Assembly: GCA_037144015.1 (NCBI GenBank)
Contig: JBAWXQ010000030.1
Location: forward strand, 1-19,717
Direction of reading: 5' to 3'
Length of the DNA: 19,717 nucleotides
Source of the DNA: a bacterium
Lineage (GTDB): Bacteria > Verrucomicrobiota > Kiritimatiellia > RFP12 > CAIWXQ01
Shown here: positions 274-19,413 of the stretch, piece by piece
Layout: each line of letters begins with the position of its first letter
Position numbering within the stretch: position 1 is the stretch's first letter
Position numbers and translations under genes: made by a program
The notes under the pieces: generated by a model
Told to the model about the DNA's origin: nothing
Database searches by the model: none
The model's input: only the letters and a program-made list of their open reading frames with translations

Positions 274-1167
274 TTAGAACGGCAATTCAGTTGCGGTTAC
301 CACCCGTACCAGGGCGCCGCCTGATTTTTCGTCGCGCTGCTGCTCAATCAAGCCGCGTTTCTCGGCCTCGTCGAGCAGGGCGGTGAAGGAGCCGAAGCCG
401 TAGTATCGCTCGGTGAAGCCGGGCTTGCGCCGGCGCAGGGCCTGCTTGACCATGGAGCCCCAGATGCGGTCGTTGTCGCCGCGTTCGCTGGAAAGTGCCT
501 CGATGGTTTCGATCAGCAGGTCGAATGCTTCCTGCTGGCGATCATCGTCCGCTTTCTCGGTCTTTCCTGCTTTTTCACCGCCCCCGCGGCGGGCAGGTGC
601 GGGCGCAGGTGCGGCGGCGCCACCGGGCACTTCTGGCGCAGGAGAACGCGGCGGTGGGCGGCGGCGGGGCGCGGCGCGCTTGCGGAGGTCGTCGCGCACC
701 AGGTCGTCATAGAAGATGAACTCGTCGCAGTTGGCGATGAGCAGCTCCGAGGTGGAGTTCTTGACGCCCACGCCGATCACGACCTTGCCGTTCTCGCGCA
801 GCTTGCTGACGAGCGGCGAGAAGTCCGAGTCGCCGCTGATGATTACGTAGGTGTCGACCTGCGCCTTGGTGTAGCCGCAGTCGAGGGCGTCCACGACCAT
901 GCGGATGTCGGCCGAGTTCTTGCCGGACTGCCGCACGTGGGGCACTTCGATCAGCTCAAACGAGGCCTCGTGCATGCCGGCCTTGAACTCCTGGTAGCGC
1001 GACCAGTCGCAGTAGGCCTTCTTGATGATGATGCTTCCCTTGAGCAGCAACCGCTCCAGCACGCGGCGGATGTCGAAGCGGTCGTAGTGCGCGTCGCGCA
1101 CGCCCAGGGCGATGTTCTCAAAGTCGCAGAACAGGGCCAGGTTGCGCATGTCGGAGGGGGTTGCCAT
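274..1167 (-). CDS. NYN-domain (PIN-like, LabA/limkain-type) protein with C-terminal OST-HTH/LOTUS domain
   Basis: The 297-aa ORF has an N-terminal NYN-like region (LALFCDFENIALG...VIISGDSDFSPLV...VIGVGV) with a conserved acidic/SGDSDF motif. A Pro/Ala/Arg-rich linker follows. The C-terminal region (FDLLIETIEAL...WGSMVKQALRRRKPGFTERYYGFGSFTALLDEAEKRGLI) resembles OST-HTH/LOTUS. Identification is by motif memory only. Confidence 0.6.
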   Translation of the reverse strand: MATPSDMRNLALFCDFENIALGVRDAHYDRFDIRRVLERLLLKGSIIIKKAYCDWSRYQEFKAGMHEASFELIEVPHVRQSGKNSADIRMVVDALDCGYTKAQVDTYVIISGDSDFSPLVSKLRENGKVVIGVGVKNSTSELLIANCDEFIFYDDLVRDDLRKRAAPRRRPPPRSPAPEVPGGAAAPAPAPARRGGGEKAGKTEKADDDRQQEAFDLLIETIEALSSERGDNDRIWGSMVKQALRRRKPGFTERYYGFGSFTALLDEAEKRGLIEQQRDEKSGGALVRVVTATELPF

Positions 1168-2458: not shown

Positions 2459-3256
2459 ATGGCAACGTTGCCGACAACAGGGAAACGTGGACGTGTGAGC
2501 AGAACGGTTGCGTTTCTGTGGATCAGTGGCGTGCTGACGATCCTGGCCACCGGGGCTTTGCTGGGCATGGCGGTCGATGCCCATGCCGGGCGTGAGAGCC
2601 GGGTCCGCGCCGCACTGCCGCTGGTGCTGTTCGCGCTGGCGATGGCCGGGACCCTGGTGATCGGATGGGGGTTGCTTCGCCGGGGCGCGGACTGGAAGCG
2701 GTTGGAGGCCAAGCGGGCACGGGAGCTGCAGGAGGGCGAGGCGAACGCGCGCGCGCTGGCCAGTGTGGCAACGGGGCTTTCGGCGCGGGTCGACCTGGGC
2801 GCTGACGTCCCCCGGGTGCTCGCAGGCGATCCGGCTCAGGTGCGCATTCTGCTGGTCGAGGACAACCCCGTCAATCAAGCCATGGCCGTGCGCCAGCTGA
2901 AAAAGCTGGGCTACCAGCAGGTCGATACCGTCGGCAACGGCCGGGAGGCGCTGGAAGCGGTGGATCGGCAGCCCTATGATCTGGTGCTCATGGATTGCCA
3001 GATGCCCGAGATGGACGGCTATGAAGCAACACGCCGGATACGCGCATGGGAGGCCGGGCGTCCGAAGGATCGGCGACCGGGAAGGTTGCCGATCCTGGCG
3101 ATGACCGCCAATGACATGAAAGGCGACCGGGAAAAATGCCTGGCTGCGGGCATGGATGACTACATCGTCAAGCCCGTGCGGATGGCGGACCTGGCGCGGG
3201 TCGTGCAGCAGGCCGTCCCGGGGCAGGACGCATTCCCGGGGCATGATAGCGGTTGA
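2459..3256 (+). CDS. Membrane-anchored orphan response-regulator receiver protein (two predicted TM helices plus CheY-like REC domain)
   Basis: The N-terminus has two hydrophobic stretches (VAFLWISGVLTILATGALLGMAV and ALPLVLFALAMAGTLVIGWGLL). The REC domain has RILLVEDNPVNQ...YDLVLMDCQMPEMDG...LPILAMTANDMKGDREKCLAAGMDDYIVKP, with a phospho-acceptor Asp in LMDCQMP and a conserved Lys in VKP. There is no output domain, and the domain resembles the C-terminal receiver of hybrid kinases. Confidence 0.7.
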   Translation: MATLPTTGKRGRVSRTVAFLWISGVLTILATGALLGMAVDAHAGRESRVRAALPLVLFALAMAGTLVIGWGLLRRGADWKRLEAKRARELQEGEANARALASVATGLSARVDLGADVPRVLAGDPAQVRILLVEDNPVNQAMAVRQLKKLGYQQVDTVGNGREALEAVDRQPYDLVLMDCQMPEMDGYEATRRIRAWEAGRPKDRRPGRLPILAMTANDMKGDREKCLAAGMDDYIVKPVRMADLARVVQQAVPGQDAFPGHDSG

Positions 3257-3523: not shown

Positions 3524-4201
3524 TTGTCTTTCATGAAAGCCAGCACAGACCGGAAGCGCGTGAGCAACCGAACGCTGCTCTACTTTCCCATCGTCCACAG
3601 CCAGTCGGAGATGGGAAAGCTGGGTAAAACCATCCGGAAGGTGACGCAGCAAAAGCTGGGCCGACGCGTCTGGCAGCGCAAGGTTGACCTGGTTGACCGG
3701 TTCTGGGAGCACCTGGCGGAGATTGTCTTCCAGGACCTGGCCATACCTTACGCGCGAACGCGCGTTTATCAGGACGGTCTGCCGGTCTGCGACAAGGAGA
3801 TCGAGATCGTCACGGAGATTGCAAAACTGGGAAGCCCGAATCACCGGCTGCTCCTCCAGCTCCGGGAAAAGGGCGCCACGATCATGGGCACGGAATCCGC
3901 CGAACTGCTGATCAGGGAGTACCGCCTCGCCAAGGAGATCCTCAACGCCGGGGATGCCCGGGAGGCCCTGGAGCTCGAGGCGCAGCAGAAGGCGGCCGGC
4001 GAGCAGCTGCTGGAGAAGCGGGACGCGTTCATTGCGGCACGGATCGACCAGACGCTGCTGGCGGGCGAGACCGGGCTCCTGTTCCTGGGAATGCTGCACA
4101 GCCCGGTGGCCCGGTTGCCGCCGGACATCCGTGTGCTTTATCCGCTGGAGGGGCTGCTGGAAAAAGGCGGCCCCCTGGACAGCGAGGTACGCAAGCGATG
4201 A
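3524..4201 (+). CDS. Hypothetical protein, first gene of the gvp regulatory operon (start TTG at 3524, or ATG at 3533)
   Basis: 225-aa ORF with no recognisable domain and a helical, charged C-terminal half. The stop overlaps the start of the downstream NtrC-like gene (ATGA at 4198-4201), indicating translational coupling. Confidence 0.55.
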   Translation: MSFMKASTDRKRVSNRTLLYFPIVHSQSEMGKLGKTIRKVTQQKLGRRVWQRKVDLVDRFWEHLAEIVFQDLAIPYARTRVYQDGLPVCDKEIEIVTEIAKLGSPNHRLLLQLREKGATIMGTESAELLIREYRLAKEILNAGDAREALELEAQQKAAGEQLLEKRDAFIAARIDQTLLAGETGLLFLGMLHSPVARLPPDIRVLYPLEGLLEKGGPLDSEVRKR

Positions 4202-5625
4202 AAACCGCCCCCGCCCAGCCCGCCCCCGCCCAGCCCGCCCCCGCCCAGCCCGTACGCGCCCTGATCGTGGACGATGACGATGACGTGCGGAGCATGCTGA
4301 CGCTGATCCTGGAAAAGGAGGGGCTCACGGTGATGGCCGCTGCGGACGGCCAGACCGCGCTGCGCCTGCTCCAGTCGCCCCTGTCCGTCCCGGATGTCGT
4401 GCTGCTCGATGTGCGCATGCCGGGGCTCAGCGGCCTGGATGTCCTGGCGAAGATCCGCGAGATGGGAAACCAGCTTCCTGTGGTGCTGATCACGGCGTAT
4501 GCCGACGTGCGGCAGTCTGTCCAGGCGATGAAGTGCGGCGCCTATGATTACCTTACCAAGCCGTTCGACAATCGTGAGGTCGCGCGGGTCACGCTGCAGG
4601 CCTTGTCGGAAAAGCGGGTGAGCCGGCTGAATGCGGCCGGCTGCGCGCCGCTGGAGCACCTGACTCTGTTTACGAGCATGGGGGCGTCGGACGCCGTTGC
4701 CCGGATCACGTCGGATGTGCATCGCGTGGCCACGTCCGATTTTTCCGTCCTGCTCATCGGCGAAACGGGCGCGGGCAAGGATCTGGTGGCCGAGGCGATT
4801 CACCGGGGCAGCGCCCGGCGGGAGGCGCCCTTTGTCGCGGTCGACTGCGGGGCGATCCCCGAGGCGCTGCTGGAAAGCGAGCTGTTCGGGCATGAACGGG
4901 GGTCGTTTACCGGGGCGGACCGCCAGAAGGTGGGGAAGTTTGAGGAAGCCCACGGGGGCACGCTGTTTCTTGACGAGCTAGCCAATCTGCCCTTCGGGTC
5001 CCAGGCAAAACTGCTGCGCGCGATTCAGCGAAAGTCGATTTACCGGGTTGGCGGCACCAAGTTCATCGACGTCAATTTCCGGCTGATTGCCGCCTCCAAC
5101 CGGAGCCTGCGCAAGATGGTGGCCGCCGGCACGTTTCGCGAGGATCTGTATTACCGGCTGTGCGATTTCACCATCGATATTCCCGCGCTGCGGGAGCGGA
5201 AAATGGATGTGCTCTACCTTGCAAAAGTCTTTCTGGAGCAGGTGGAGGTCGAGCTGGGCAAGAAGACGGCGGGCCTTTCGGAAACGGCCGTGGAGGCGCT
5301 GGTCGCCTACGACTGGCCCGGGAACGTCCGCGAGCTCAAGGCGGTGATCCGGCGGGCCGTGCTGGTGGCTGCGGGGCCCATCACCGAGAAGGACCTCAAC
5401 ATCAGGCGCATTGCGATGCCGGCTTCGGCCGATGCGGCGGAGGATGCCCTGGCCTGGCAGGGGGGGTCGCTCCGGGAGATTGTGCAGCGGAGCGTGGTGG
5501 ATGTGGAACGGAAAGTCCTGGCCGGCGTCCTGCGGGTCACCGGCGGAAACAAGGCCAAGGCGGCGCGGCTGCTGCAGGTGGACTACAAGACCATGCACAC
5601 CAAGGTGAAGAAGTTCGGCATCTAA
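4198..5625 (+). CDS. gvrA: Sigma54-dependent response regulator (NtrC family: REC + sigma54-activation AAA+ + Fis-type HTH), GvrA-like
   Basis: REC: [17 protein letters not shown]...[17 protein letters not shown]...[10 protein letters not shown]...[11 protein letters not shown]+: [18 protein letters not shown] (Walker A), [23 protein letters not shown] (GAFTGA motif), GTLFLDEL (Walker B). C-terminal HTH: [23 protein letters not shown]. The symbol is by analogy to the Serratia gvrA regulator and is not proven. Confidence 0.85.
4206..4250 (+). repeat. Three tandem copies of a 15-bp unit (ccgcccccgcccagc) encoding (PAPAQ)3 at the N-terminus of the NtrC-like regulator
   Basis: Copies read at 4206-4220, 4221-4235 and 4236-4250. 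The repeat is in-frame, so copy-number change would alter only the N-terminal linker length. Confidence 0.85.
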
Positions 5626-5641
5626 ACGAAAGGTGGACACC

Positions 5642-6331
5642 ATGAGCAGAAACAACCCTGATCCGGACAAGCAGGCGGGAAAGCCTGCCGCCGGAGGCGG
5701 CCTCTTTAGCAGCCTGACCGACTTTCTGGAGTCGGCGGGGAAGCTGGCCGGCGCGGCCGGGCAGCGGAAGCCGTCGCACGCGGCGGGTGCCGGAGGCGGG
5801 GCAAAAGAGTCCGGCGCCGCGGGCGGTCCGGAGGCCGGCGCGGCGCGCGTGGGCGGGATCCTGAACAACCTGGCCGACCTGGCTGCGAAGCTGAAGGAAC
5901 TCTCGGAAAAAGGAGAATCCCTGTCTGAACAGGGAGAGTTCACGTTCCCGTCCAAAAAAGGCGGCATCAAGGGCGTGTATGGCTTCTCCGTGAAAACAGG
6001 GCTGGGCGAGAAGGGCGACCAGATCAAGGTCGAGCCGTTCGGCAACATCCGCAAGGACCAGAAGACCGGCGAGGCGGCGGTGCAGGAGATCAGCGAGCCG
6101 CTGGTGGATGTCTTTCCGGACACGTCCGGCACCACCCTGGTCGCCGAGATGCCGGGCATGGGCCCGGACGATATCTGCCTTGAAGTCCAGGACGACGTGC
6201 TGACGATCGCCGCGCAAAAGGGCGAGCGGAAGTACCGGAAGGAGCTGCTGCTGGGGCACCTGCTGGCGAAGGATCGCATCGCCGTGGTGTGCAACAATGG
6301 CGTCGCGACCATTCGCTGTGAGAAGCCATGA
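5642..6331 (+). CDS. gvpH: GvpH-like small heat-shock (Hsp20/alpha-crystallin) domain protein with a Gly/Ala-rich disordered N-terminal half
   Basis: The C-terminal segment VDVFPDTSGTTLVAEMPGMGPDDICLEVQDDVLTIAAQKGERKYRKELLLGHLLAKDRIAVVCNNGVATIRCEKP matches the Hsp20 fold pattern (V-D-E...L-I...G-L-I). An ATG at 5642 has an AAAGGTGG RBS at 5629-5636; the ORF table begins at GTG 5633. The position after the NtrC regulator is the same as gvpH in Serratia. The stop overlaps the next gene's start (ATGA). Confidence 0.7.
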   Translation: MSRNNPDPDKQAGKPAAGGGLFSSLTDFLESAGKLAGAAGQRKPSHAAGAGGGAKESGAAGGPEAGAARVGGILNNLADLAAKLKELSEKGESLSEQGEFTFPSKKGGIKGVYGFSVKTGLGEKGDQIKVEPFGNIRKDQKTGEAAVQEISEPLVDVFPDTSGTTLVAEMPGMGPDDICLEVQDDVLTIAAQKGERKYRKELLLGHLLAKDRIAVVCNNGVATIRCEKP

Positions 6332-8463
6332 AAACACAACCACCCGGGGCTGCCGCGCCCATCAAGCTGCGTGTGACCGAAGCCCTGACCAAGGATGTCG
6401 GGCGGGCCTTTGCCCGGATGGGCCCCGAGGATCTGGACCGGCTGCACCTCGCCGTTGGCGACACCGTGGAGGTGGAGGGAAAGCGCAAGGCCGTCTGCAA
6501 GGCGATGCCGGCCTACGCGGACCTTCGCGGACAGTCCCGCGTCCAGCTCGACGGATCCACCCGCGAGAACGCGGGCGCGGGGCTCGATGATCCGGTGAGC
6601 ATCCGCAGGATCTCCTGCCGCCCGGCGGATCGCGTGGTGCTCGCGCCGACCAACGTCGTGCCGGCGGACCGGGACCTGAAGTACATCGGGAGCCTGCTGG
6701 ACGGCCTGCCCGTTCTGGAGGGCGCCAAGATCCAGGCGGCCCTGTTCGGCAGCCGCTCCGCTTTCTTTCAGGTTGAATCCGTGATGCCCAAGGGCGCCGT
6801 GCTGATTCATTCCGGCACGACGCTCGTGATCGGCAAGGCCCAGGCAGAGGAGGGGGCGGGGGCGCTTTCCTACGAGGACATCGGCGGCCTGAAGTCGCAG
6901 CTCCAGCGCATCCGGGAGATGATCGAGCTGCCGCTGCGCTACCCCGAGGTGTTTCAGCGCCTCGGGATTGACGCGCCCAAGGGGGTGCTGCTGTACGGCC
7001 CGCCGGGATGCGGCAAGACCCTGATCGCCCGCGCCATCGCCCACGAGACCGATGCCAGCTTCTTTTCCATCAGCGGGCCGGAAATCATCCACAAGTTCTA
7101 CGGCGAAAGCGAAGCCCACCTGCGGAAGATCTTCGAGGAGGCGACAAAAAAAGGTCCCAGCATCCTGTTCATCGACGAGATCGATGCCATTGCCCCCCGG
7201 CGGGACAATGTGGTTGGCGACGTGGAGAAGCGGGTCGTTGCCCAGCTCCTCGCCCTCATGGACGGGCTGAACAAGCGGCAGAATGTGATCGTCATCGCCG
7301 CCACCAACATCCCCAATGCCCTTGACCCGGCCCTGCGGCGCCCGGGCCGGTTCGACCGGGAGATCGTGATCCCGATACCGGACCGGCGCGGCCGTCTGGA
7401 GATCCTGGAGATTCACAGCCGGGGGATGCCGCTGGCCGGTGACGTCCAGATGGAACACCTGGCGGAGATCACCCACGGCTTTGTGGGCGCGGACCTCGAG
7501 GCGCTTTGCCGGGAGGCGGCCATGGGCTGCCTCCGGCAGATCATGGGGGAGATCGACTTTAGCCAGGCGGGGATTCCGTACGAAACGCTCGCAAAGCTCG
7601 AGGTGCGCATGGAGGACTTCCTGTCCGCCCTGCGGGAGATTGAGCCGTCCGCCATCCGGGAGGTCTTTGTCGAATCGCCCAATGTACACTGGGGCGACGT
7701 CGGGGGTCTGGCCTCCTTGAAGCAGCGCCTGATCGAGGCCGTGGAGTGGCCCTTGAAGCATCCCCGGCTCTTTGAAAAAGGCGGCGTGACGCCACCCAAG
7801 GGGATTTTGCTGGTCGGCCCGCCGGGTTGCGGCAAGACCATGATGGCCAAGGCGATCGCCACCGAGAGCCAGGTCAACTTCATCTCGGTCAAGGGCCCGG
7901 CCCTGATGTCCAAGTGGGTCGGCGAATCGGAAAAGGGGATCCGCGAGATCTTCCACAAGGCCAGGCAGGCTGCGCCGTGCATCATCTTCTTTGACGAGAT
8001 TGACGCCCTGGTGGCGACGCGCAGCGCGGGCACCACCGACTCGCATGTCTCCGAGCGGATCCTGAGCCAGTTCCTGGCGGAGTTTGACGGGATCGACGAG
8101 CTCCGGGGGGTTCTTGTCCTGGGGGCCACCAATCGCCGGGACCTGCTGGATGCCGCCGTTCTCCGCCCAGGGCGGTTCGATGATATCGTCGAGATGACGT
8201 TGCCCGGCGAAGCAGACCGCGAGGCGATCTTCGCTGTGCATTTCCGCGGCAAGCCGCTGGCGAAGCAGATCAAGTGCGCGGCGCTGGCGGCAAAGACCGA
8301 CGGGTTCAGCAGCGCGGACATCGCCGCGGTTGCGCGCAAGGCCGCCATGACTGCGGTTCGCCGGGTCGTGAAGAGCCTGGAGTGTGGCGCGGCGGAAGAG
8401 CCGGAAATCCTGATCCAGCGCGAGGACGTTGACGACGCGCTGGAGGAAGTGCGCAGGCGGTAG
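6328..8463 (+). CDS. CDC48/p97/VAT-like AAA+ ATPase (N-domain plus two AAA modules, D1 and D2)
   Basis: N-terminal region KLRVTEALTKDVGRAFARM...LAVGDTVEVEGKRKAVCKA...SRVQLDGSTRENAGAGLDDPVSIR resembles the double-psi-barrel CDC48 N-domain. D1 has Walker A GPPGCGKTLIARAIAHE, Walker B ILFIDEIDAIAP and an SRH-like region VIVIAATNIPNALDPALRRPGRFDREIVI. D2 has Walker A GPPGCGKTMMAKAIATE, Walker B IIFFDEIDALV and LVLGATNRRDLLDAAVLRPGRFD. Total length is 711 aa, and the gene is translationally coupled to gvpH (ATGA). Confidence 0.85.
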   Translation: MKTQPPGAAAPIKLRVTEALTKDVGRAFARMGPEDLDRLHLAVGDTVEVEGKRKAVCKAMPAYADLRGQSRVQLDGSTRENAGAGLDDPVSIRRISCRPADRVVLAPTNVVPADRDLKYIGSLLDGLPVLEGAKIQAALFGSRSAFFQVESVMPKGAVLIHSGTTLVIGKAQAEEGAGALSYEDIGGLKSQLQRIREMIELPLRYPEVFQRLGIDAPKGVLLYGPPGCGKTLIARAIAHETDASFFSISGPEIIHKFYGESEAHLRKIFEEATKKGPSILFIDEIDAIAPRRDNVVGDVEKRVVAQLLALMDGLNKRQNVIVIAATNIPNALDPALRRPGRFDREIVIPIPDRRGRLEILEIHSRGMPLAGDVQMEHLAEITHGFVGADLEALCREAAMGCLRQIMGEIDFSQAGIPYETLAKLEVRMEDFLSALREIEPSAIREVFVESPNVHWGDVGGLASLKQRLIEAVEWPLKHPRLFEKGGVTPPKGILLVGPPGCGKTMMAKAIATESQVNFISVKGPALMSKWVGESEKGIREIFHKARQAAPCIIFFDEIDALVATRSAGTTDSHVSERILSQFLAEFDGIDELRGVLVLGATNRRDLLDAAVLRPGRFDDIVEMTLPGEADREAIFAVHFRGKPLAKQIKCAALAAKTDGFSSADIAAVARKAAMTAVRRVVKSLECGAAEEPEILIQREDVDDALEEVRRR

Positions 8464-8464
8464 G

Positions 8465-9265
8465 ATGAACCAGGGAATCTATCTGTTCTGCCTGACGCCG
8501 GAAAACGACCGGCTGGTGCTGGCGGACGCCGGAGACGATCCGGCGCAGCCGCTTGCAGCCGCGGCCGTCGCCGGAGTCACCGCCATTGTTGCTCCGGTTT
8601 CCCTGAATGACTTCTGCGGCCCGGAGTCCCGCGCGCGGCTGGCGGACCTGGCATGGGTGGGGCCGCGGGCGCAGCGTCACGAAGAGGTCATCCTGGCCGT
8701 GATGCGCCAGGCGCCGGTGCTGCCGGTGCGGTTCGGGAGCGTGTTCTCCTCCCTGGCGGCGCTGTCGGCTTCGCTGGAACGGCAGCGTGAGGCCATGGCG
8801 CAGTTTTTCCTGGACACGGCCGGCCATCAGGAGTGGACGCTCAAGGCCTTTGTGGACCGGTCGCAGGCAAGGGCGAGGGTCATGGCCACACGGCTGGCGG
8901 CGGAGAAAGAACAGCTGGATGCGCTGGCGCCGGGGAAACGCTATCTGCAGGAGCAGAAGATCAATGGCGTCGTGGACCGGGAGGTGGCGTTCGGGCTCAA
9001 AAAGATGGCCGCCGGGATCAGCCTCTTCTTTCAGGAGGTGGCCCCTGTGTCCTGTGTCGGTCGCCTGCTGCCCCGGGACGTGACGGGGCGGGATGACGAA
9101 ATGTTTTTTCATTCCGCCCTGCTGGTGCCCGACGGCGCCGTCGCGCAGCTGCAGCGACTGGCCGCTGCGTGGAATGCCCGGCATGCGTCCATGGGGATGA
9201 TTCTGGAGGCCTCGGGCCCCTGGCCTCTCTACCATTTCACACCTGTCAGCAGCGCCGCGCCATGA
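8465..9265 (+). CDS. gvpF: Gas vesicle protein GvpF/GvpL family (paralog 1)
   Basis: Starts MNQGIYLFCL (ATG 8465). The C-terminal hallmark is SGPWPLYHF (GPWPPY[N/H]F-type motif of GvpF/L). Length is about 266 aa. The ORF table begins earlier at 8429, but that ATG overlaps the upstream stop. Confidence 0.8.
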   Translation: MNQGIYLFCLTPENDRLVLADAGDDPAQPLAAAAVAGVTAIVAPVSLNDFCGPESRARLADLAWVGPRAQRHEEVILAVMRQAPVLPVRFGSVFSSLAALSASLERQREAMAQFFLDTAGHQEWTLKAFVDRSQARARVMATRLAAEKEQLDALAPGKRYLQEQKINGVVDREVAFGLKKMAAGISLFFQEVAPVSCVGRLLPRDVTGRDDEMFFHSALLVPDGAVAQLQRLAAAWNARHASMGMILEASGPWPLYHFTPVSSAAP

Positions 9266-9269
9266 GCCT

Positions 9270-9995
9270 ATGGTCTACCTGGTCTATGGAATTTTGAAAG
9301 CTTCGGCCGCCGGCAGCGGACCGCTGGCGGGCGTGCGGGGCGCGTGCGTGACCATCGTCACCGCGCATGGCCTCGCTGCGGCCATCTCGCAGCTGGATGC
9401 GGCGGTTCATGCGCCCTCCGTGGACGAGCTGCTTGTCTATGGCCGGGTGGTGGATGCGCTTTTCCGCCGGCAGGCGGTGGTCCCGTTGCGATATGGCTGT
9501 TTTTTGAACGGGCCGGCGGCGGTCGAGGCGGTTCTGGAAGCGAAAAAAGATTCTTGCGAAGCCCTGCTGGCGGAGCTGGACGGGCAGGCGGAGATGGGGA
9601 TCCGGATTCTGCTGCCCGCAGGTGCAGAGACGGTGCCGCCCGCGGCGCAGCCGGTGGATGGCAGCGCGTATCTTGCCCGGCGGAAGGCGCACTACCAGAT
9701 GCAGGAGGCCGACGCCCGGCAGCATCAGGCGCTGCTGGACCGGTACGTGCAGGCCCTGGCCGGACTGAATGGAAAGCACCGGACCGAGACAGCCACGCGC
9801 GACGGCGCGGTCGCCCTGTCGCTCGATTATTTGATTCCGAAGAGCCAGGTCAGCGCGTTTCGGGAGATCTTTCGCGGGGTGGCGGCGCAGGAAGGCACCC
9901 GGGTTCAGCTCAGCGGCCCGTGGCCGCCGTACAATTTTTCCATGCCGTCCGACCTGACGGCGCCAAGGGGCCGGTCGGATAGGAGGTTGCCGTGA
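9270..9995 (+). CDS. gvpL: Gas vesicle protein GvpF/GvpL family (paralog 2)
   Basis: Starts MVYLVYGIL and ends ...QLSGPWPPYNFSMPSDL. This is the canonical GvpF/L architecture, at 241 aa. It is tandem to the previous GvpF/L, as with gvpF2-gvpF3 of Serratia. Confidence 0.8.
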   Translation: MVYLVYGILKASAAGSGPLAGVRGACVTIVTAHGLAAAISQLDAAVHAPSVDELLVYGRVVDALFRRQAVVPLRYGCFLNGPAAVEAVLEAKKDSCEALLAELDGQAEMGIRILLPAGAETVPPAAQPVDGSAYLARRKAHYQMQEADARQHQALLDRYVQALAGLNGKHRTETATRDGAVALSLDYLIPKSQVSAFREIFRGVAAQEGTRVQLSGPWPPYNFSMPSDLTAPRGRSDRRLP

Positions 9996-11572
9996 ATGAA
10001 AACCCGGAAAATCCGGCTGTCCCGGCTGTCGCCCTGCGGTATGGAAAACTCTACGAAATGCTGCTGGAGGCGATTCCCTTCTCGGTCCTCCTGATTCTGC
10101 CAAGCCTGCGCATTCATTCGGCAAATCGCAATTTTTTGAACAAGAGCCAGAAGGCCCTGCCGGATGTCGTGGGGCACCGGATCGAGGACGTCTTTCCCGC
10201 CGTGATCTGCGAGCAGATGGCGATTACCCGGCGTATCCGCAACGTCTTCGAAACCAACCACCCGGTCGAGGGCGACCGGATGACCTACCGGGCGCCGGGC
10301 GTGCCCCTGCGCATCTATTACTACAGCCTGCTCCCGTTCATCTGGCAGGGGCGGACAGAAGGCGTGCTTCTGCTGATGAATGATATGACGGAGCAGGTGC
10401 GCCTCGGCGAAGAGGTGCGGCGGGTGGAGCAGCACCTGGCCAGCATTGTGGACAGCGCCAGCGACCTCATCCTCTCGACTGATTTGGCGGGCCGGATCCT
10501 GACGTGGAATACCACGGCAGAGCGGCTCTCGGGATATGCCGCGGCCGAGGCGCGCGGGCGGAGCTTTGCCGAATTCTGCGCCGGGGAGAGTGCGGACATC
10601 CAGGGCGTTTTCGCGCGGGACGGAGTCCAGAGCCGGGAGTGGCTCTTCAAGACGAGGCAGTCGGAGCTGCTGCTCGTCGCCTGGGGCTTCTCGCCGCTGC
10701 TGGATCACCAGGGGCAGGCCGTCGGGGTCGTGTGCGTGGGGCGGGACCTGACGGAACGGCGGAAGTTCGAGATGGAACTGGTCCAGTCCCAGAAGATGGC
10801 GGCGCTGGGTGTCATGGCCGGCGGCATTGCCCACGAGATCCGGAACCCGCTGGCCAGCTGCTCGTCGGCCGCCCAGTTCCTCGCCGACGAAAAGGTTATT
10901 TCGCCGGAGTTTCTCCGGGAGTGCGCGGAGACGATCCGGCGCGGGGTCCGGCGGGCGTCCACGATCATCGAGAATCTTCTGCGCTACGCGCATCCCGACA
11001 CGCCGATCCATCCGTCGCCTGTCAATTTGGTTGACCTGATCACTGAAACGCTGGCCCTGGTGGCGGCTCACGCCAGGCTGAACCAGGTCGAGACGGGAAC
11101 GTCGTTTGCCAGTGCCCCGGCCATGGTGCAGGGCGTGGGCACGCTGCTGCAGCAGGTTTTCATGAACCTGTTCCTGAATGCGATTCAGGCCATGCCCACC
11201 GGGGGACGACTGCAGGTGGTTTTGGACATGGAGGATGGCGGCCTCCGGGTCCGGGTGATCGACTCGGGCTGCGGCATCCGGAAGGAAAACATCCAGAAGG
11301 TCTTTGACCCATTCTATACGACGTCGACCGCCAAGGATGGCACCGGGCTTGGGCTGGCCATCTGCTACACGGTGATGAAGCAGCACGGCGGCAGCATCGC
11401 GATTGAAAGCAATGTGGGGTCTGGCTGCACGGTCACGGTCCGTTTTCCCCGCCCGGGCGCCTCACGCGCAGGATCCGAAAGCCGGCCGTCGCACGTTTCG
11501 CTGCCCGGCGGTCATGAAACGGAAGCACATGCCGTGTTTTCGGGAAGCAATTCCATAGCCTCCCGGCCATAG
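9992..11572 (+). CDS. gvrB: PAS-domain sensor histidine kinase (HisKA + HATPase_c), GvrB-like
   Basis: Starts at GTG 9992, with an AGGAGG RBS at 9981-9986. The H-box is [11 protein letters not shown], the N-box LNAIQA, G1 VIDSGCGI and G2 GTGLGLAI. Upstream PAS-like region: [24 protein letters not shown]. No obvious TM segments, so it is probably cytoplasmic. Confidence 0.85.
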
Positions 11573-11579
11573 TCTCCCG

Positions 11580-11619
11580 GCGCATGGCAGAAACATGCGC
11601 ATTGTTGGCTGTTTTTTGC
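11580..11619 (+). terminator. Hairpin GCGCATG-gcagaaa-CATGCGC followed by a T-rich tract (tgttttttg). Possible intrinsic terminator of the regulatory operon, or an enhancer-binding-protein site
   Basis: A perfect 7-bp inverted repeat at 11580-11586 / 11594-11600. A T6 run at 11612-11617 follows 11 nt after the stem. It sits between the histidine-kinase stop (11572) and the sigma54-like element at 11631. Confidence 0.45.
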
Positions 11620-11630
11620 GAATCTCTGTT

Positions 11631-11645
11631 TGGCACGATTCCCGC
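11631..11645 (+). promoter_or_regulatory. Candidate sigma54 promoter: TGGCACG-attc-CCGC, with -24 GG and -12 GC at consensus spacing
   Basis: tggcacgattcccgc read at 11631-11645. GG at 11632-33 and GC at 11644-45 are 12 nt apart, as in the TGGCACG-N4-TTGC consensus. It lies about 74 bp upstream of the gvpA ATG, and an NtrC-family activator is encoded in the same island. Confidence 0.5.
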
Positions 11646-11718
11646 GTATACCCACTTACCGCATGCATGGGTATGTGTGCGGATTCGAGTTACAGAATCA
11701 ACGCAATGGAGACGAGCA

Positions 11719-11937
11719 ATGGCAAAGATTCAGAAATCAACGGATTCCTCGAGCCTGGCCGAGGTTGTCGACCGCATCCTGGACAAGGGTATTGTCATCG
11801 ATGCGTGGGTGAAGGTGTCGCTGGTCGGCATCGAGCTGCTCTCGGTCGAAGCGCGCGTCGTGATCGCGTCTGTTGAGACGTATCTCAAGTACGCCGAGGC
11901 GATTGGTTTGACGGCCAATGCCGCCACGCCTGCCTGA
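11719..11937 (+). CDS. gvpA: Gas vesicle structural protein GvpA (major shell protein)
   Basis: [64 protein letters not shown] is the highly conserved GvpA core. Length is 72 aa. A GGAG RBS at 11708-11711 lies 7 nt before the ATG. Confidence 0.95.
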
Positions 11938-11959
11938 GTGTGAGATGCTTCGTGTCTTC

Positions 11960-11990
11960 CCGGTGGCGGGGGTCGACGATCCCCGCCACC
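11960..11990 (+). terminator. GC-rich hairpin (CGGTGGCGGGG-gtcgacgat-CCCCGCCACCG) immediately downstream of gvpA. Candidate attenuator or partial terminator
   Basis: Two 11-bp perfect inverted arms, cggtggcgggg (11960-11970) and ccccgccaccg (11980-11990), with a 9-nt loop, lie 23 bp after the gvpA stop. No U-tract follows, so read-through is likely. Confidence 0.5.
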
Positions 11991-12051
11991 GCGGTTGACC
12001 CGGAGGCTTTTCAATGCACGACAGTCGGTAGTTGCCACGAAGGGAATCATC

Positions 12052-12666
12052 ATGAAGAAGCTGGCCGAAGCAGAGAAGAAGCATTGCGCGAAACGGGTGG
12101 CCTTTCAGACCAATCTGACCGTTGAAGTGAAGTCCATGCTGACGGAATTTTCCAAGACGCGGCGCGAGCTGGCCCGCATCGCAAGTGAGGAACGCAGGGC
12201 GCTGCTGCTGGAGATCCGGAAGCAGGTCGCGGGTTTGCGCACCCTGACGAGCCAGGTGCAGGCAGGCGCACCGCGTGCCCTCGCCGTGCCGTTGGCCGTT
12301 CCGGCTCCGAAAATCAAGATTTTCGGGGCGTCGATCATCGTCCAGAAGGCGAAGACCGACAGCGGCATAGTCCCTCTGTTGCCCAGCGTCAATACGCCGA
12401 AAATGCCGGTGTTTGTGGCGCCGGTTCAGGTGAAAGTCGAACCCCCCAGGGCCGAAATGATCGCCCCCCCGGCCCTGCCGAAACCGGCACCGGTCAAGGT
12501 GGCCAAGGTGGTCGAACCGCGCATGGTTGAACCCAGGGCAAAGCCGGTCGCGCCTCCCGTGGCCAGTCGCCCACTGAAGAAGGAAGCGCATGACGGGTGG
12601 CTGGACGAAATTTTTGGCAAGAGCGCGACCAGCGCGACCAAGGCGAAGCGGAAGAAAAAGAAGTAG
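12052..12666 (+). CDS. Hypothetical coiled-coil / Pro-rich / Lys-tailed protein in the gvpC position
   Basis: The N-terminus MKKLAEAEKKH...RELARIASEERRALLLEIRKQVAGLRTL is predicted helical. The middle is Pro/Val/Lys-rich with short repeats (VEPPRAEM, VEPRMVEPRAKPVAPPVASRP). The C-terminus is KAKRKKKK. It lies immediately downstream of gvpA and the hairpin. No 33-aa GvpC repeats are visible. Confidence 0.6.
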   Translation: MKKLAEAEKKHCAKRVAFQTNLTVEVKSMLTEFSKTRRELARIASEERRALLLEIRKQVAGLRTLTSQVQAGAPRALAVPLAVPAPKIKIFGASIIVQKAKTDSGIVPLLPSVNTPKMPVFVAPVQVKVEPPRAEMIAPPALPKPAPVKVAKVVEPRMVEPRAKPVAPPVASRPLKKEAHDGWLDEIFGKSATSATKAKRKKKK

Positions 12667-12671
12667 GAAGC

Positions 12672-13046
12672 ATGACGCGGCGTAGATCAGTCAGGAGTAC
12701 GGTTGCATTCATCGAAGGGGTTTGCGCTTTTTGCCGCGGCAAAGGTGTGGACCCCTTCGCTGTCATGTCGGCGCGCTCCACGTGCTGCGTGTGCTCGGGA
12801 ACATGCAAGGTGCGGGTTCGTGCGCCGATTATTTCCTGCGCGCACTGCCGCGGCACGGGGGCTGTCAAAACCTTGACTTGTACGGTCTGTGGCGGCAAGG
12901 GCTCGGTTCACCGGCCGGCGCAGCCAACGAGGGTCTGCCCGGTTTGTCACGGCACGGGCGACGATGCCTCCGCGCCGGCCATGGACTGTTTGAAGTGCCG
13001 GGGACGCGGTTGTGTCACCGGAGTGAAGCCAACTAAGGGAGCCTGA
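12672..13046 (+). CDS. DnaJ-type zinc-finger (CxxCxGxG repeat) protein, BSD2-like stand-alone cysteine-rich domain
   Basis: Six CxxCxGxG-type motifs in 124 aa: CAFCRGKG, CCVCSGTC, CAHCRGTG, CTVCGGKG, CPVCHGTG, CLKCRGRG. AGGAAG lies 5 nt before the ATG at 12672. There is no J-domain. Confidence 0.75.
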   Translation: MTRRRSVRSTVAFIEGVCAFCRGKGVDPFAVMSARSTCCVCSGTCKVRVRAPIISCAHCRGTGAVKTLTCTVCGGKGSVHRPAQPTRVCPVCHGTGDDASAPAMDCLKCRGRGCVTGVKPTKGA

Positions 13047-15642: not shown

Positions 15643-16035
15643 GTGTTCCTGGTTGATGACATCATTCTTTCGCCGATCCGCGGCCTGATCTGGGTCTTTC
15701 GCGAGATTCACAGTGCCGCCGGCAAGGATCTTGCCGCGGAACCTGCGGCCATCACCGCCCGCCTCGGCGAACTCTACATGATGCTGGAGACCGGCCAGCT
15801 GAACGAGGCCGAGTTCGACGCCCAGGAGAAAACGCTTCTGGATCGCCTGGATTTCTTGAAGTCGGCTTCCGTCGGCGACGCGGAGGATGCCGGAGACGAC
15901 AGCGAAGAGAACGAGGCTGGCGAGGAGGATGAGCCGGACGGCGACGGCGAGGCGGAGGTTGCGGACAGACCAACGGATGGCGCGATGGATCGCGTGCGCC
16001 CCGGAGAACATTCCCAAGGACGGGCAGACTCGTGA
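15643..16035 (+). CDS. gvpG: Gas vesicle protein GvpG with an extended acidic C-terminal tail
   Basis: (GTG start) MFLVDDIILSPIRGLIWVFREI...LGELYMMLETGQLNEAEFDAQEKTLLDRLDFL matches the GvpG family pattern (compare B. megaterium GvpG: LHKLVTAPINLVVKIGEKV...LMRYE). The tail DAEDAGDDSEENEAGEEDEPDGDGEAEVAD is strongly acidic. The stop overlaps the start of the downstream ArsA-like gene. Confidence 0.7.
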   Translation: MFLVDDIILSPIRGLIWVFREIHSAAGKDLAAEPAAITARLGELYMMLETGQLNEAEFDAQEKTLLDRLDFLKSASVGDAEDAGDDSEENEAGEEDEPDGDGEAEVADRPTDGAMDRVRPGEHSQGRADS

Positions 16036-18053
16036 GGGACATGCAGAAATCATCCGGGTTCCCGCCGGCCGATAACCTGCCGCTGTTGCTTTTTGGAGGA
16101 AAGGGCGGCGTCGGCAAAACGACAGCCGCCACGGCGACGGCGCTCGACCTTGCTGTTCGGAACCCGGGGCAGTCCATTCTTCTGGTTTCCACGGATCCCG
16201 CGCACTCCCTGCGAGACAGCTTTGCCGGTGACAAGCCGCCGCCGAACCTGACGGTGCTGGAGCTGGATGCCGGCGCCTGCCTGCAGGCTTTCCAGGCGGA
16301 GAACCGGCAGCGACTCCTGGAGATCGCCTCGCGGGGAACCTTTCTGGACGGCGAGGACATCGACCGGTTTCTGGCGCTATCCCTTCCGGGCATGGATGAG
16401 CTCATGGGGTTTATGGAGATCAACCGCTGGGTCCGGGATGGCACCTATGCCCGGATTGTCGTGGATACGGCGCCCACCGGGCACGCCCTGCGGCTGATGG
16501 GGATGCAGGCGCAGATGCAGAAGTGGCTGCAGGCGCTGGACGCTCTGCTGGCCAAGCACCGGTACATGAAGAAGCTTTTCCAGGGGCACTATGAGCGCGA
16601 CGACCTCGACCGCTTCATCGAGGGCCTCGCCGACTCCGTCCAGGCGACAGGCGCGCGGCTCATGGATCACCAGCAGTGCCGCTTTGTTCCGGTGATGCTG
16701 GCCGAAGCCTTGAGCGTCGAGGAGACGCTGGACCTGATCCGGGAGCTGCGCCGGCTGGGCATCGGGACGGATCATGTGGTGGTCAATCGCCTGTATCCGG
16801 AAAGCGGCTGCGATCTGTGCCGGGCCGTGCGCGGCCAGCAGCTGCAGGAACTTGCGCGGCTGGCGGATGCGGCGCTTTTTTCCGGCAAGCAGCTTTGGGG
16901 CGTCCCCATGTATCCGCTGGAAATCAAGGGGCTGGAGGGCCTGCGCGCCTTCTGGAAGGGGCTCGCGCCGATCCCGACGTCCTGCGCGGAACGTCCGTGC
17001 GCCCGGCCACGAATCGCTCCGCGCGTCGACAACCCCGCTCCGCTGCCGCCGCCGGACACGACGCTGCTGGTCTTTGCCGGCAAGGGTGGGGTTGGCAAGA
17101 CCACCCTGGCCTGTGCCACGGCCCTGCGCCTGGCCCATGAGCACCCCGGGAAGCGAGCCCTGCTTTTCTCCGCCGATCCCGCCCACTCGCTGGCCGACTG
17201 TCTGGGGCTGCCCGTGGGCCCCGTCCCGGAGCAGGTGGTGCCGGGCCTGTGGGCCATGGAAATGGACGCCCCCGCCGGGTTTGCTGCGTTGAAAGAGCAG
17301 TACCGCAAGGAGCTGGAGCAGTTTCTCGCGCGTCTGATGCCGAACCTCGACCTGACGTTCGATCGTGAAGTGATGGAGCGGATCATGGATCTGTCGCCCC
17401 CGGGGATTGATGAGCTGATGGCCCTTGCGGCGGTGATGAACCATCTGTCTCCGGAGGGGTACGACATCCTGATCCTTGACGCGGCTCCGACCGGGCACTT
17501 GATCCGGCTGCTGGAGTTGCCGGAGATCATTGAGAACTGGCTGAAGGTGGTGTTCAGCATTTTCCTCAAGTACCGGAACATCTTCCGCCTGCCGGGAATC
17601 TCGGCGCGCCTGATCGGCCTGTCCAAGGACCTGAAGCGCCTGCGGGCAGTTCTGCGCGATCCGTCCCGCGCGGGCCTCTACAGCGTCAGCATCCTCACGG
17701 AAATGTCCTTTGCGGAGACGGGGGACCTCCTGGCTGCCTGTGAGCGTCTGGCCATTCCGGTTTCCGGCTTGTTTTTGAACCTGGCAACGCCGGATTCCGC
17801 CGACGCCCTCTGCGCATCGATTTTCGCCCGTGAGTCGCAAACCCGGGCGCGCATCGCGGCGGCGTTTCCCGGCACGCCGCAGACGCTTGTGTATCGGCAA
17901 AGCGAACCGCGGGGCACGGCAAACCTGGCGGCGCTGGGAATGCAACTCTACCTGCCGCCTGGCGACGGAGCCGGGCAGGCGCGAACGGCCGTCGGCAGCA
18001 GACGCCGGACGGAGCGAAGCCGGTCGCCAACCGGTGAGGTTTTGTATGCCTGA
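16032..18053 (+). CDS. Fused tandem ArsA/GET3-family ATPase (two deviant-Walker-A P-loop NTPase halves)
   Basis: Half 1: LLLFGGKGGVGKTTAATATA, DPAHSL, and the A-loop/switch II VVDTAPTGHALRL. Half 2: LLVFAGKGGVGKTTLACATA, DPAHSL, ILDAAPTGHLIRLL. A CDLC (CxxC) lies in the first half (PESGCDLCRAV). The protein is 673 aa. Start is GTG 16032 or ATG 16041, and the stop overlaps the ATG of the next gvpA-like gene (18046). Confidence 0.85.
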   Translation: MRDMQKSSGFPPADNLPLLLFGGKGGVGKTTAATATALDLAVRNPGQSILLVSTDPAHSLRDSFAGDKPPPNLTVLELDAGACLQAFQAENRQRLLEIASRGTFLDGEDIDRFLALSLPGMDELMGFMEINRWVRDGTYARIVVDTAPTGHALRLMGMQAQMQKWLQALDALLAKHRYMKKLFQGHYERDDLDRFIEGLADSVQATGARLMDHQQCRFVPVMLAEALSVEETLDLIRELRRLGIGTDHVVVNRLYPESGCDLCRAVRGQQLQELARLADAALFSGKQLWGVPMYPLEIKGLEGLRAFWKGLAPIPTSCAERPCARPRIAPRVDNPAPLPPPDTTLLVFAGKGGVGKTTLACATALRLAHEHPGKRALLFSADPAHSLADCLGLPVGPVPEQVVPGLWAMEMDAPAGFAALKEQYRKELEQFLARLMPNLDLTFDREVMERIMDLSPPGIDELMALAAVMNHLSPEGYDILILDAAPTGHLIRLLELPEIIENWLKVVFSIFLKYRNIFRLPGISARLIGLSKDLKRLRAVLRDPSRAGLYSVSILTEMSFAETGDLLAACERLAIPVSGLFLNLATPDSADALCASIFARESQTRARIAAAFPGTPQTLVYRQSEPRGTANLAALGMQLYLPPGDGAGQARTAVGSRRRTERSRSPTGEVLYA

Positions 18054-18966: not shown

Positions 18967-19413
18967 TCACCCCGCGGCCGGCAGGCGGCTTCGCACCACG
19001 TTCAGCAGGATTTCGCTGGTGACGGGCTTCTGGATGAGGCAGTGATTCTGCCCTGCGGACGCCAGCGCCTTGATGCTGGGGGACGGCGCAAAGCCCGTGC
19101 AAAAGATGACGGCAGGCATTTCCCACCCTTTTACCGCGCAGGCTTCGCGGATCCTGGCAAAGGCCGTCTGGCCATCCATGATCGGCATCTTCAGGTCCAT
19201 CAGCAGAACGCCATGATGCGACTTCTGGAACGCTTGCAACGCTTCCAGCCCGTTGGCCGCCACTTCAATGGTGCACGTAGGAAAACCGGAGGCCAGGATC
19301 ATCCGGAAAATGTCACGCACAGGCGTCTCATCATCGGTGATGAGGATTCGCCGTGCGTCACACGGAATCAGTTCTGCTGCGGGTTGGCTCGTCATGTTCG
19401 TCGGGTATCCCAT
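18967..19413 (-). CDS. gvrC: Single-domain response regulator (CheY-like receiver only), GvrC-like, convergent with the gvp structural operon
   Basis: RILITDDETPVRDIFRMIL...HGVLLMDLKMPIMDGQTAFARIRE...MPAVIFCTGF...IQKP has the REC-domain acidic pocket, a phospho-acceptor Asp in LMDLKMP and a conserved Lys. No output domain is present. The symbol is by analogy to Serratia gvrC. Confidence 0.7.
   Translation of the reverse strand: MGYPTNMTSQPAAELIPCDARRILITDDETPVRDIFRMILASGFPTCTIEVAANGLEALQAFQKSHHGVLLMDLKMPIMDGQTAFARIREACAVKGWEMPAVIFCTGFAPSPSIKALASAGQNHCLIQKPVTSEILLNVVRSRLPAAG

Follow-up and report, generated by a model that had tools for sequence, protein, structure and literature searches.

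A close known counterpart of the locus considered here is the gas-vesicle gene cluster of Serratia sp. ATCC 39006, where a consensus sigma-54 site precedes the gvpA1 transcription start mapped by 5'RACE (rapid amplification of cDNA ends; Tashiro et al. 2016, PMC4982088). In this strain gvpA1 expression needs the regulators GvrA, GvrB and GvrC (PMC4982088), and an rpoN transposon mutant showed neither gas vesicles nor transcription of the gvpA1 operon, with gvrA expression unchanged, according to the citation of Hill (2021) in PMC11778176. The present work concerns a 19,717-nt stretch of DNA, hereafter the window (contig JBAWXQ010000030.1, assembly GCA_037144015.1, from a bacterium of the Kiritimatiellia), which is filled by a gas-vesicle gene cluster, and, within it, the 146-bp gap separating the open reading frame (ORF) of a PAS histidine kinase from gvpA. 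This junction is probably the sigma-54-dependent promoter of the gvpA operon, on which a GvrA-like activator would act from positions 11519-11572, the gvrC gene having been lost. Since the mechanism is already known in Serratia, the window is regarded as a further member of the same kind, and the general picture of gas-vesicle regulation is left unchanged. Control of gvpA by sigma-54 and GvrA has been demonstrated only in Serratia, and the same promoter architecture was found here in more than 40 mostly uncultured lineages; what the analysis adds is this breadth of conservation, a candidate activator site, an arrangement devoid of gvrC and a degenerate -12 box.

A first-pass annotation of the window, made without database searches, had placed a sigma-54-type -24/-12 element in the gap and had suggested direct control of gvpA by an NtrC-family activator encoded 6 kb upstream, noting that gvrA is required for the gvpA1 operon in Serratia, a point which the literature bears out (PMC4982088). 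The element is present as described: TGGCACGATTCCCGC at 11631-45 reads TGGCACG-ATTC-CCGC, with GG at 11632-33 and GC at 11644-45, which gives the exact GG-N10-GC spacing, and the gvpA ATG follows 74 nt after the C of the -12 GC. Set against the extended consensus YTGGCACG-N4-TTGCW, the -24 half matches perfectly and the -12 box is degenerate (CCGCG versus TTGCW), only its GC matching. The promoter call rests on positional orthology and not on the quality of the motif. In fact, a search with the kinase returned 79 loci, 43 of which have gvpA downstream of the kinase gene, and a TGGCA[CT]-N5-TTGC-type element stands before the first gvpA ATG in 41 of these 43, at a distance of 66-101 nt in 39 loci, 132 nt in L041 and 211 nt in L027 (88 nt in the window), so that the element is conserved at the orthologous position. 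The most informative comparison is with locus L021 (kinase 67% identical), the one of the two closest relatives whose sequence reaches gvpA, which carries TGGCACGCTTCCTGCT 89 nt before that gene. Between the window and L021 only two blocks of DNA are conserved in the region, namely the -24/-12 block (16 of 18 positions) and a block of 43 nt (11532-11574; 32 of 43) which includes the palindrome described below. No sigma-70-like promoter was found in 10800-12600.

A weight matrix built from the gvpA-upstream sites of the related loci was run over both strands of the window, and the element proved to be its top match (14.4 bits, the next scoring 10.1), with 0.16 matches of this score expected per random window. 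In the relatives, 39 matches of at least 14 bits lie just upstream of gvpA copies and only 21 elsewhere in 637 kb.

The putative activator also has the required equipment. The product of the gvrA-like gene, which ends 6.0 kb upstream of the -24/-12 element, gave Pfam matches to Response_reg, Sigma54_activat (PF00158, E 6e-66), AAA_lid_14 and HTH_8, and carries a Walker A motif (GETGAGKD), a Walker B motif and a GSFTGA loop, a variant common to 11 relatives; it thus possesses both the AAA+ sigma-54 interaction domain and the GAFTGA-type loop of a cognate enhancer-binding protein. The orthologous elements, the matrix match and this loop together support the control of gvpA by sigma-54 and a GvrA-like protein that the first-pass annotation had proposed, a call which is right in substance and was weakly founded on sequence alone.

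The second conserved block holds the candidate binding site. An 18-bp palindrome, TCGGGAAGCAATTCCATA, is flanked by two half-sites, and GGAA is found at the place of the distal one in L021, L081 and L082. The sequence GGAA-N4-TTCCATAG occurs exactly once in the window, where the next-best match to the palindrome reaches only 10/14. In the relatives, a palindrome of the form YAKGGAA-N4-TTCCMTR precedes the gvpA promoter in most cases, frequently followed 14-20 nt further on by an extra TTCCATAG half-site. The usual distance of its centre from the -24 GG is 101-138 nt, compared with 83 nt in both the window and L021. The 46 strong copies in 1.09 Mb of fetched loci all lie in gas-vesicle regulatory regions (24 upstream of gvpA, 18 upstream of the activator gene and 4 upstream of a second sigma-54 promoter inside clusters of Verrucomicrobia), and the 452 kb made up of loci lacking a gvpA match contain none. 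Standing at a distance that would suit an activator site (roughly 80-150 bp from the promoter), the region 11519-11572 is the likely enhancer; it lies inside the kinase ORF, upstream of the stretch in which the first-pass annotation had looked for such a site. The palindrome is taken as the putative binding site of the GvrA-like activator because no other Pfam-scanned ORF of the cluster encodes a protein with a recognised DNA-binding domain. The DNA-binding helix of the activator is near-invariant across the family, and in Verrucomicrobia, a single clade, an H-to-Q change in the helix goes with a change from TTCCATA to TTCCCTA in the site. No description of this candidate site was found in the searchable literature.

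The anatomy of the sequence, its conservation and the domains it encodes are what the analysis shows, and from these a course of events covering phosphorylation, binding, looping and transcription start may be proposed. Sigma-54 RNA polymerase would bind TTGGCACGATTCCCGCG (11630-46), and the GvrB-like PAS kinase would presumably phosphorylate the GvrA-like activator. The latter would then occupy the enhancer formed by palindrome and half-sites, contact the polymerase by DNA looping and open the promoter at the expense of ATP hydrolysis. Transcription would start near 11657, so that the leader would measure about 62 nt, with a hairpin near its 5' end and GGAG ahead of the gvpA ATG at 11719. With gvrC lost, the kinase frame now runs on to the TAG inside the proximal half-site, and the hairpin and T6 tract which follow the kinase gene would lie in the looping spacer.

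This hairpin deserves separate consideration, since the first-pass annotation had offered it, together with the T6 tract downstream, as an intrinsic terminator or, alternatively, as an activator site. The end of the kinase gene at 11572, the perfect 7-bp inverted repeat and the tract are all where it had put them. Neither interpretation has been sustained. If the hairpin at 11580-11600 and the T-rich stretch behind it were an intrinsic terminator, they would end the gvrA-gvrB operon and insulate the gvpA promoter, in agreement with the lack of read-through between the two operons in Serratia (PMC4982088). The stem is adequate for that purpose (perfect 7 bp with 5 G/C pairs, 7-nt loop, -11.0 kcal/mol, 8 nt after the kinase stop), a U-rich AUUGUU follows it with T6 further on, and the whole resembles Rho-independent terminators, with a GC-rich stem-loop close behind a stop codon and T residues after it. 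It differs from them in that the T run is 11 nt off, outside the 0-2 nt after the stem within which the U-tract of an intrinsic terminator was required to start, and for this reason the terminator scan, which called nothing in 10800-12600, does not call the hairpin. In its context the fold is no more stable than in shuffles (z-score -0.17), 7.5% of shuffled versions of the 146-nt spacer contain a perfect 7-bp inverted repeat with a loop of 3-15 nt, and a place between enhancer and promoter would be unusual for a terminator. Moreover, alignment and BLAST showed the hairpin to be absent from L021, the closest relative examined, and no terminator-like site was found at the equivalent junction of L021 or L082; it thus has neither the extra stability beyond that predicted from composition nor the conservation expected of a terminator. 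Hairpin and T6 are therefore not a convincing or canonical terminator and are specific to the lineage, a terminator here being quite improbable, and, as regards activator binding, the conserved candidate is the region 11519-11572 and not the hairpin. A T-tract upstream of the -24 box was also considered as a conserved feature and set aside, runs of at least four T within 25 nt upstream of TGGCA being found in 17 of 45 loci versus 8-12 of 45 in control intervals, a weak tendency only.

The most evident departure from the relatives concerns gvrC. All relatives examined have, between the kinase gene and the enhancer, a gene of some 125 codons for a single-domain response regulator, the GvrC orthologue, with the motifs DDEPxxCW, DAKLPD and SGYFYxDD. 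The comparison of the junction in L021 (9150-9569) and L082 (2664-3044) with that of the window (11450-11572) shows that nothing of the kind is present here, and the enhancer falls inside the tail of the kinase ORF because gvrC, which normally separates gvrB from it, is missing. As judged by tblastn, homology of the kinase to its relatives ends at about residue 486, and the last 40 codons (about 11450-11572) form a non-homologous tail which passes through former intergenic DNA as far as the TAG in the proximal half-site. Locus L080 has the same gvrC-less junction. A relocated gvrC was sought within the window by tblastn with nine GvrC orthologues, which returned generic receiver domains only, three in number and 18.5-27% identical to the orthologues, and was rejected. 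One of the receiver proteins of the window is a free-standing protein of 148 aa encoded at 18967-19413 on the minus strand, convergent at the cluster end, 21-27% identical to the GvrC orthologues and lacking the GvrC signature motifs; another is a 265-aa receiver-domain protein encoded at 2459-3256, upstream of the activator gene. Either of them might stand in for GvrC, neither being an orthologue.

Several observations weigh against a functional sigma-54 promoter in the window. First of all, the -24/-12 motif taken alone is not beyond chance: TGGCAC-N7-GC occurs once in the window versus 1.49 expected at its composition, and when up to two mismatches to the consensus are allowed, 17 matches are found versus 25 expected. 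No other of the 45 sites compared has a -12 box as degenerate as CCGCG, and CCGC is found in none of the other 44. The relatives' matrix is partly circular, its training sites having been picked by consensus match, and an independent matrix was therefore built from 53 published sites (25 from E. coli and 28 from Desulfomicrobium) taken from part 1 of the S2 Table of PMC12316311. With it, the allele of the window scores 10.5 bits, at the 4th percentile of the published sites, and 2.4 matches of this score are expected per random window. Finally, gvrC, which in Serratia is needed for full gvpA1 expression, is absent, and the link between the palindrome and the GvrA-like protein is one that we infer. 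The scan with a sigma-54 matrix suggested in the first-pass annotation thus gave a divided answer, placing the element first in the window with the matrix of the relatives and low among known sites with the independent one, and the caution with which the call had been made on account of the -12 box was justified.

These facts could also be explained by an orthologous sigma-54 promoter which is decaying together with its circuit, gvpA being silent, weakly expressed or read through from the gvrA operon. The absence of gvrC means that the circuit may be impaired, and no convincing terminator stands upstream to prevent such read-through. The comparison with L080 (contig SESH01017690.1, NCBI assembly GCA_005795945.1), which shares 99.95% identity with the window along 8.2 kb, points the same way. 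Only four base differences separate the two over this length (11525, 11646, 12659 and 12662), and two of the four fall in regulatory elements, beside the distal GGAA half-site (11525) and at -11 (11646), the window having a non-consensus G at both; with the T of L080 at 11646 the element scores 17.2 bits, at the 34th percentile of the published sites. The low score of the window allele is due to the C at -14 and the G at -11. Nevertheless, neither base is foreign to such promoters, as C at -14 is present in E. coli glnAp2, published sites often have C at -15 (S2 Table, PMC12316311) and G at -11 is found in four relatives. The gvpA sites of the relatives as a whole, with a median of 15.9 bits in the independent matrix, are within the range of the published ones. 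Furthermore, neither the -24 box nor the enhancer palindrome is damaged, every gvp ORF checked is intact, with full-length Pfam matches, and the GvpA protein is identical to that of several other contigs. A decaying promoter is considered unlikely, and a sigma-54 promoter served by the GvrA-like activator remains the preferred reading. With gvrC lost and the -12 box weak, one may ask whether the cluster is still properly regulated.

A further-reaching proposal, to be regarded as possible but doubtful, is that TATGGAA-N4-TTCCATA with its half-sites is the long-sought DNA target of the GvrA family, and that the circuit of the window runs without GvrC and with its enhancer in the translated 3' end of gvrB. 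The palindrome is apparently conserved in the gas-vesicle loci of metagenome-assembled genomes and isolates labelled as Deltaproteobacteria/Thermodesulfobacteriota, Verrucomicrobiota and other groups, and a weaker form was found in the gammaproteobacterium Zooshikella. Were the proposal true, GvrC would be dispensable or replaceable, and occupancy of the enhancer could interfere with translation of the kinase or with read-through transcription, and these with it. The coordinates of the main features are collected in Table 1.

Table 1. Features of the gvpA promoter region and related units; positions are those of the window unless a locus is named.
Feature	Position	Strand	Basis or remark
gvrA-like sigma-54 enhancer-binding protein, receiver/AAA+/Fis-type HTH	4198..5625	+	Pfam
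gvrB-like PAS histidine kinase, 526 aa	9992..11572	+	Pfam PAS_4, HisKA, HATPase_c; TAG stop 11570-72
Candidate enhancer / upstream activating sequence	11519..11572		conservation; palindrome and flanking half-sites
Distal half-site GGAAGCA	11521-27		22 nt upstream of the left half of the palindrome
18-bp palindrome TCGGGAAGCAATTCCATA	11540-57		centre 83 bp upstream of the -24 GG
Proximal half-site CCATAG	11567-72		contains the kinase stop codon
Inverted repeat GCGCATG-N7-CATGCGC, perfect 7 bp	11580-86/11594-600	+	starts 8 nt after the kinase stop
T6 tract	11612..11617	+	starts 11 nt after the stem, 14 nt before TGGCAC
Putative sigma-54 -24/-12 promoter element TTGGCACGATTCCCGCG	11630..11646	+	best match in the window to the relatives' matrix
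Predicted transcription start	11656..11658	+	from sigma-54 promoter geometry
Leader hairpin CCGCAUGCAU-GGGU-AUGUGUGCGG	11659..11682	+	-13.8 kcal/mol, z -2.95
Shine-Dalgarno GGAG, 6 nt before the gvpA ATG	11709..11712	+	invariant in alignment with relatives
gvpA, major gas-vesicle structural protein, 72 aa	11719..11937	+	Pfam Gas_vesicle PF00741, E 3e-17
Palindromes upstream of the activator gene	L006 1514/1536, L010 2072/2086, L011 1872/1886, L013 1084, L016 297		
Palindromes upstream of the activator gene, continued	L026 480, L027 1430, L048 1319/1333, others		
Second palindrome and promoter units of Verrucomicrobia	L033 16442-16573, L037 13296-13426, L040 15083-15214, L043 16676-16774		

The start predicted in Table 1 follows from the geometry of sigma-54 promoters, in which transcription begins some 11-13 nt beyond the C of the -12 GC. 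Just beyond it, a GCATGC at 11662-67 lies within the leader hairpin and belongs to a conserved palindrome, GCATGC/GGCATGCC. In 19 of 42 loci a GCATGC is found whose first base is 11-22 nt beyond the -12 C, versus a background of 0.002 per interval. The hairpin has the same GGGU/AGGU loop in L021 and L081, with altered stems, in a comparison made by eye on four distinct sequences and hence of low power. Across all loci, the predicted 5' region folds with a mean z of -0.64, versus -0.03 for a control segment. The leader hairpin may reasonably be read as a 5'-terminal mRNA-stabilising hairpin, and the GCATGC palindrome could be an operator or part of such a stabilising structure. An inverted repeat, ATACCCA/TGGGTAT (11648-54/11668-74), overlaps the region of this hairpin. 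The pentamers GCATG and CATGC are enriched in 11520-11720 (6 starts in 200 nt, some overlapping, versus 0.59 expected), and both arms of the spacer hairpin hold the GCATG core that the leader motif also contains; enrichment upstream of the -24 box was not seen in the relatives.

Other observations concern the palindrome. A tandem 14-nt direct repeat, CCATAGCCTCCCGG / CCATAGTCTCCCGG (11553-11580), supplies two CCATAG half-sites, its second copy holding the kinase stop. In many relatives, the enhancer palindrome is also found 50-800 nt upstream of the activator gene, and in most of these a sigma-54-like AGGTATGATTCATGCA lies 123-194 nt upstream of it, an odd geometry; such palindromes may reflect autoregulation. 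No palindrome of this kind precedes the activator gene of the window. Clusters of Verrucomicrobia contain, in addition, a second unit of palindrome and sigma-54 promoter inside the cluster, which closely resembles their gvpA promoter region. A site for integration host factor (IHF) between enhancer and promoter was looked for and discarded, the consensus WATCAANNNNTTR not being conserved across loci and being perfect only in L028; the best match in the window has 4 mismatches.

As regards the layout of the cluster, the regulatory genes come first on the plus strand and are followed by the gvpA structural genes. After the activator gene, the ORFs encode an Hsp20-like protein, a CDC48-type double AAA ATPase, two GvpL/F proteins and the PAS histidine kinase, all tightly packed from 4198 to 11572, so that the regulatory operon reads gvrA-gvpH-gvpZ-gvpF-gvpF-gvrB with the activator first, and gvrA and gvrB share one operon with gvpH, gvpZ and gvpF as in the Serratia-type module. 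An exact look-up returned no protein on record identical to the 526-aa kinase. Downstream of gvpA are encoded a GvpN-like AAA+ ATPase, GvpF, GvpG, an ArsA-type ATPase, GvpK and a second GvpA/J-type protein. GvpA is 90-99% identical to that of the relatives. Its start was placed at 11719 on the strength of the homologues and of the GGAG, which rule out the alternative in-frame ATG at 11584 (inside the spacer hairpin, giving an ORF of 117 codons). Right after gvpA, a GC-rich hairpin without a T-tract (11959-11994, plus strand, -37.7 kcal/mol), not called by the terminator scan, may act as a 3' stabiliser of the mRNA or as an attenuator between gvpA and the genes that follow, and may set the ratio of gvpA to downstream transcripts. 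The cluster further includes an ORF with a DnaJ-type CXXCXGXG zinc finger (12597-13046) and a duplication of the ArsA-type ATPase between gvpG and gvpK (16032-18053). Upstream of the activator gene there are two ORFs without a confident Pfam match (3524-4201 and 1357-2445), and the left end of the window carries a divergent gene for an NYN/OST-HTH protein (274-1167, minus strand). No known RNA family was detected in 11000-12400 at E values up to 1, and the window contains no tRNA genes.

Comparison with promoters studied in other systems helps to place this junction. The nifH promoter of Klebsiella pneumoniae has a C-rich -12 region (CCCTGCA), forms weak closed complexes and depends strongly on its enhancer-bound activator, using an IHF site between enhancer and promoter. 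The window differs from nifH in having no match to the IHF consensus, and its CCGC has one more C. Another likeness is offered by the paradigm of enhancer-dependent promoters, the enteric NtrC-activated glnAp2, which also combines an activator of receiver/AAA+/Fis-HTH type with palindromic sites about 100-140 bp upstream of the start. NtrC binds TGCACC-N5-GGTGCA, whereas the site of the window is GGAA-N4-TTCC, and the target of glnAp2 is nitrogen assimilation, whereas here it would be an organelle operon. Both promoters share the TGGCAC-N5-nnGC core, which in glnAp2 ends in TCGC (S2 Table, PMC12316311).

There remains the counterpart in Serratia. The window departs from it in lacking gvrC, in its non-consensus -12 box and in the overlap of the enhancer with the 3' end of the kinase gene, and it is known from sequence alone. 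The gene order is inverted too, the regulatory operon being upstream of gvpA, an order already noted for Desulfomonile tiedjei and Psychromonas ingrahamii (Tashiro et al., PMC4982088). In both clusters an NtrC-family activator and a histidine kinase are encoded in one operon with gvpH, gvpZ and gvpF genes, and a -24/-12 sigma-54 site stands upstream of the first gvpA. In Serratia the gvpA operon depends on the cluster's own regulators, and by analogy the same dependence is proposed for the cluster of the window.

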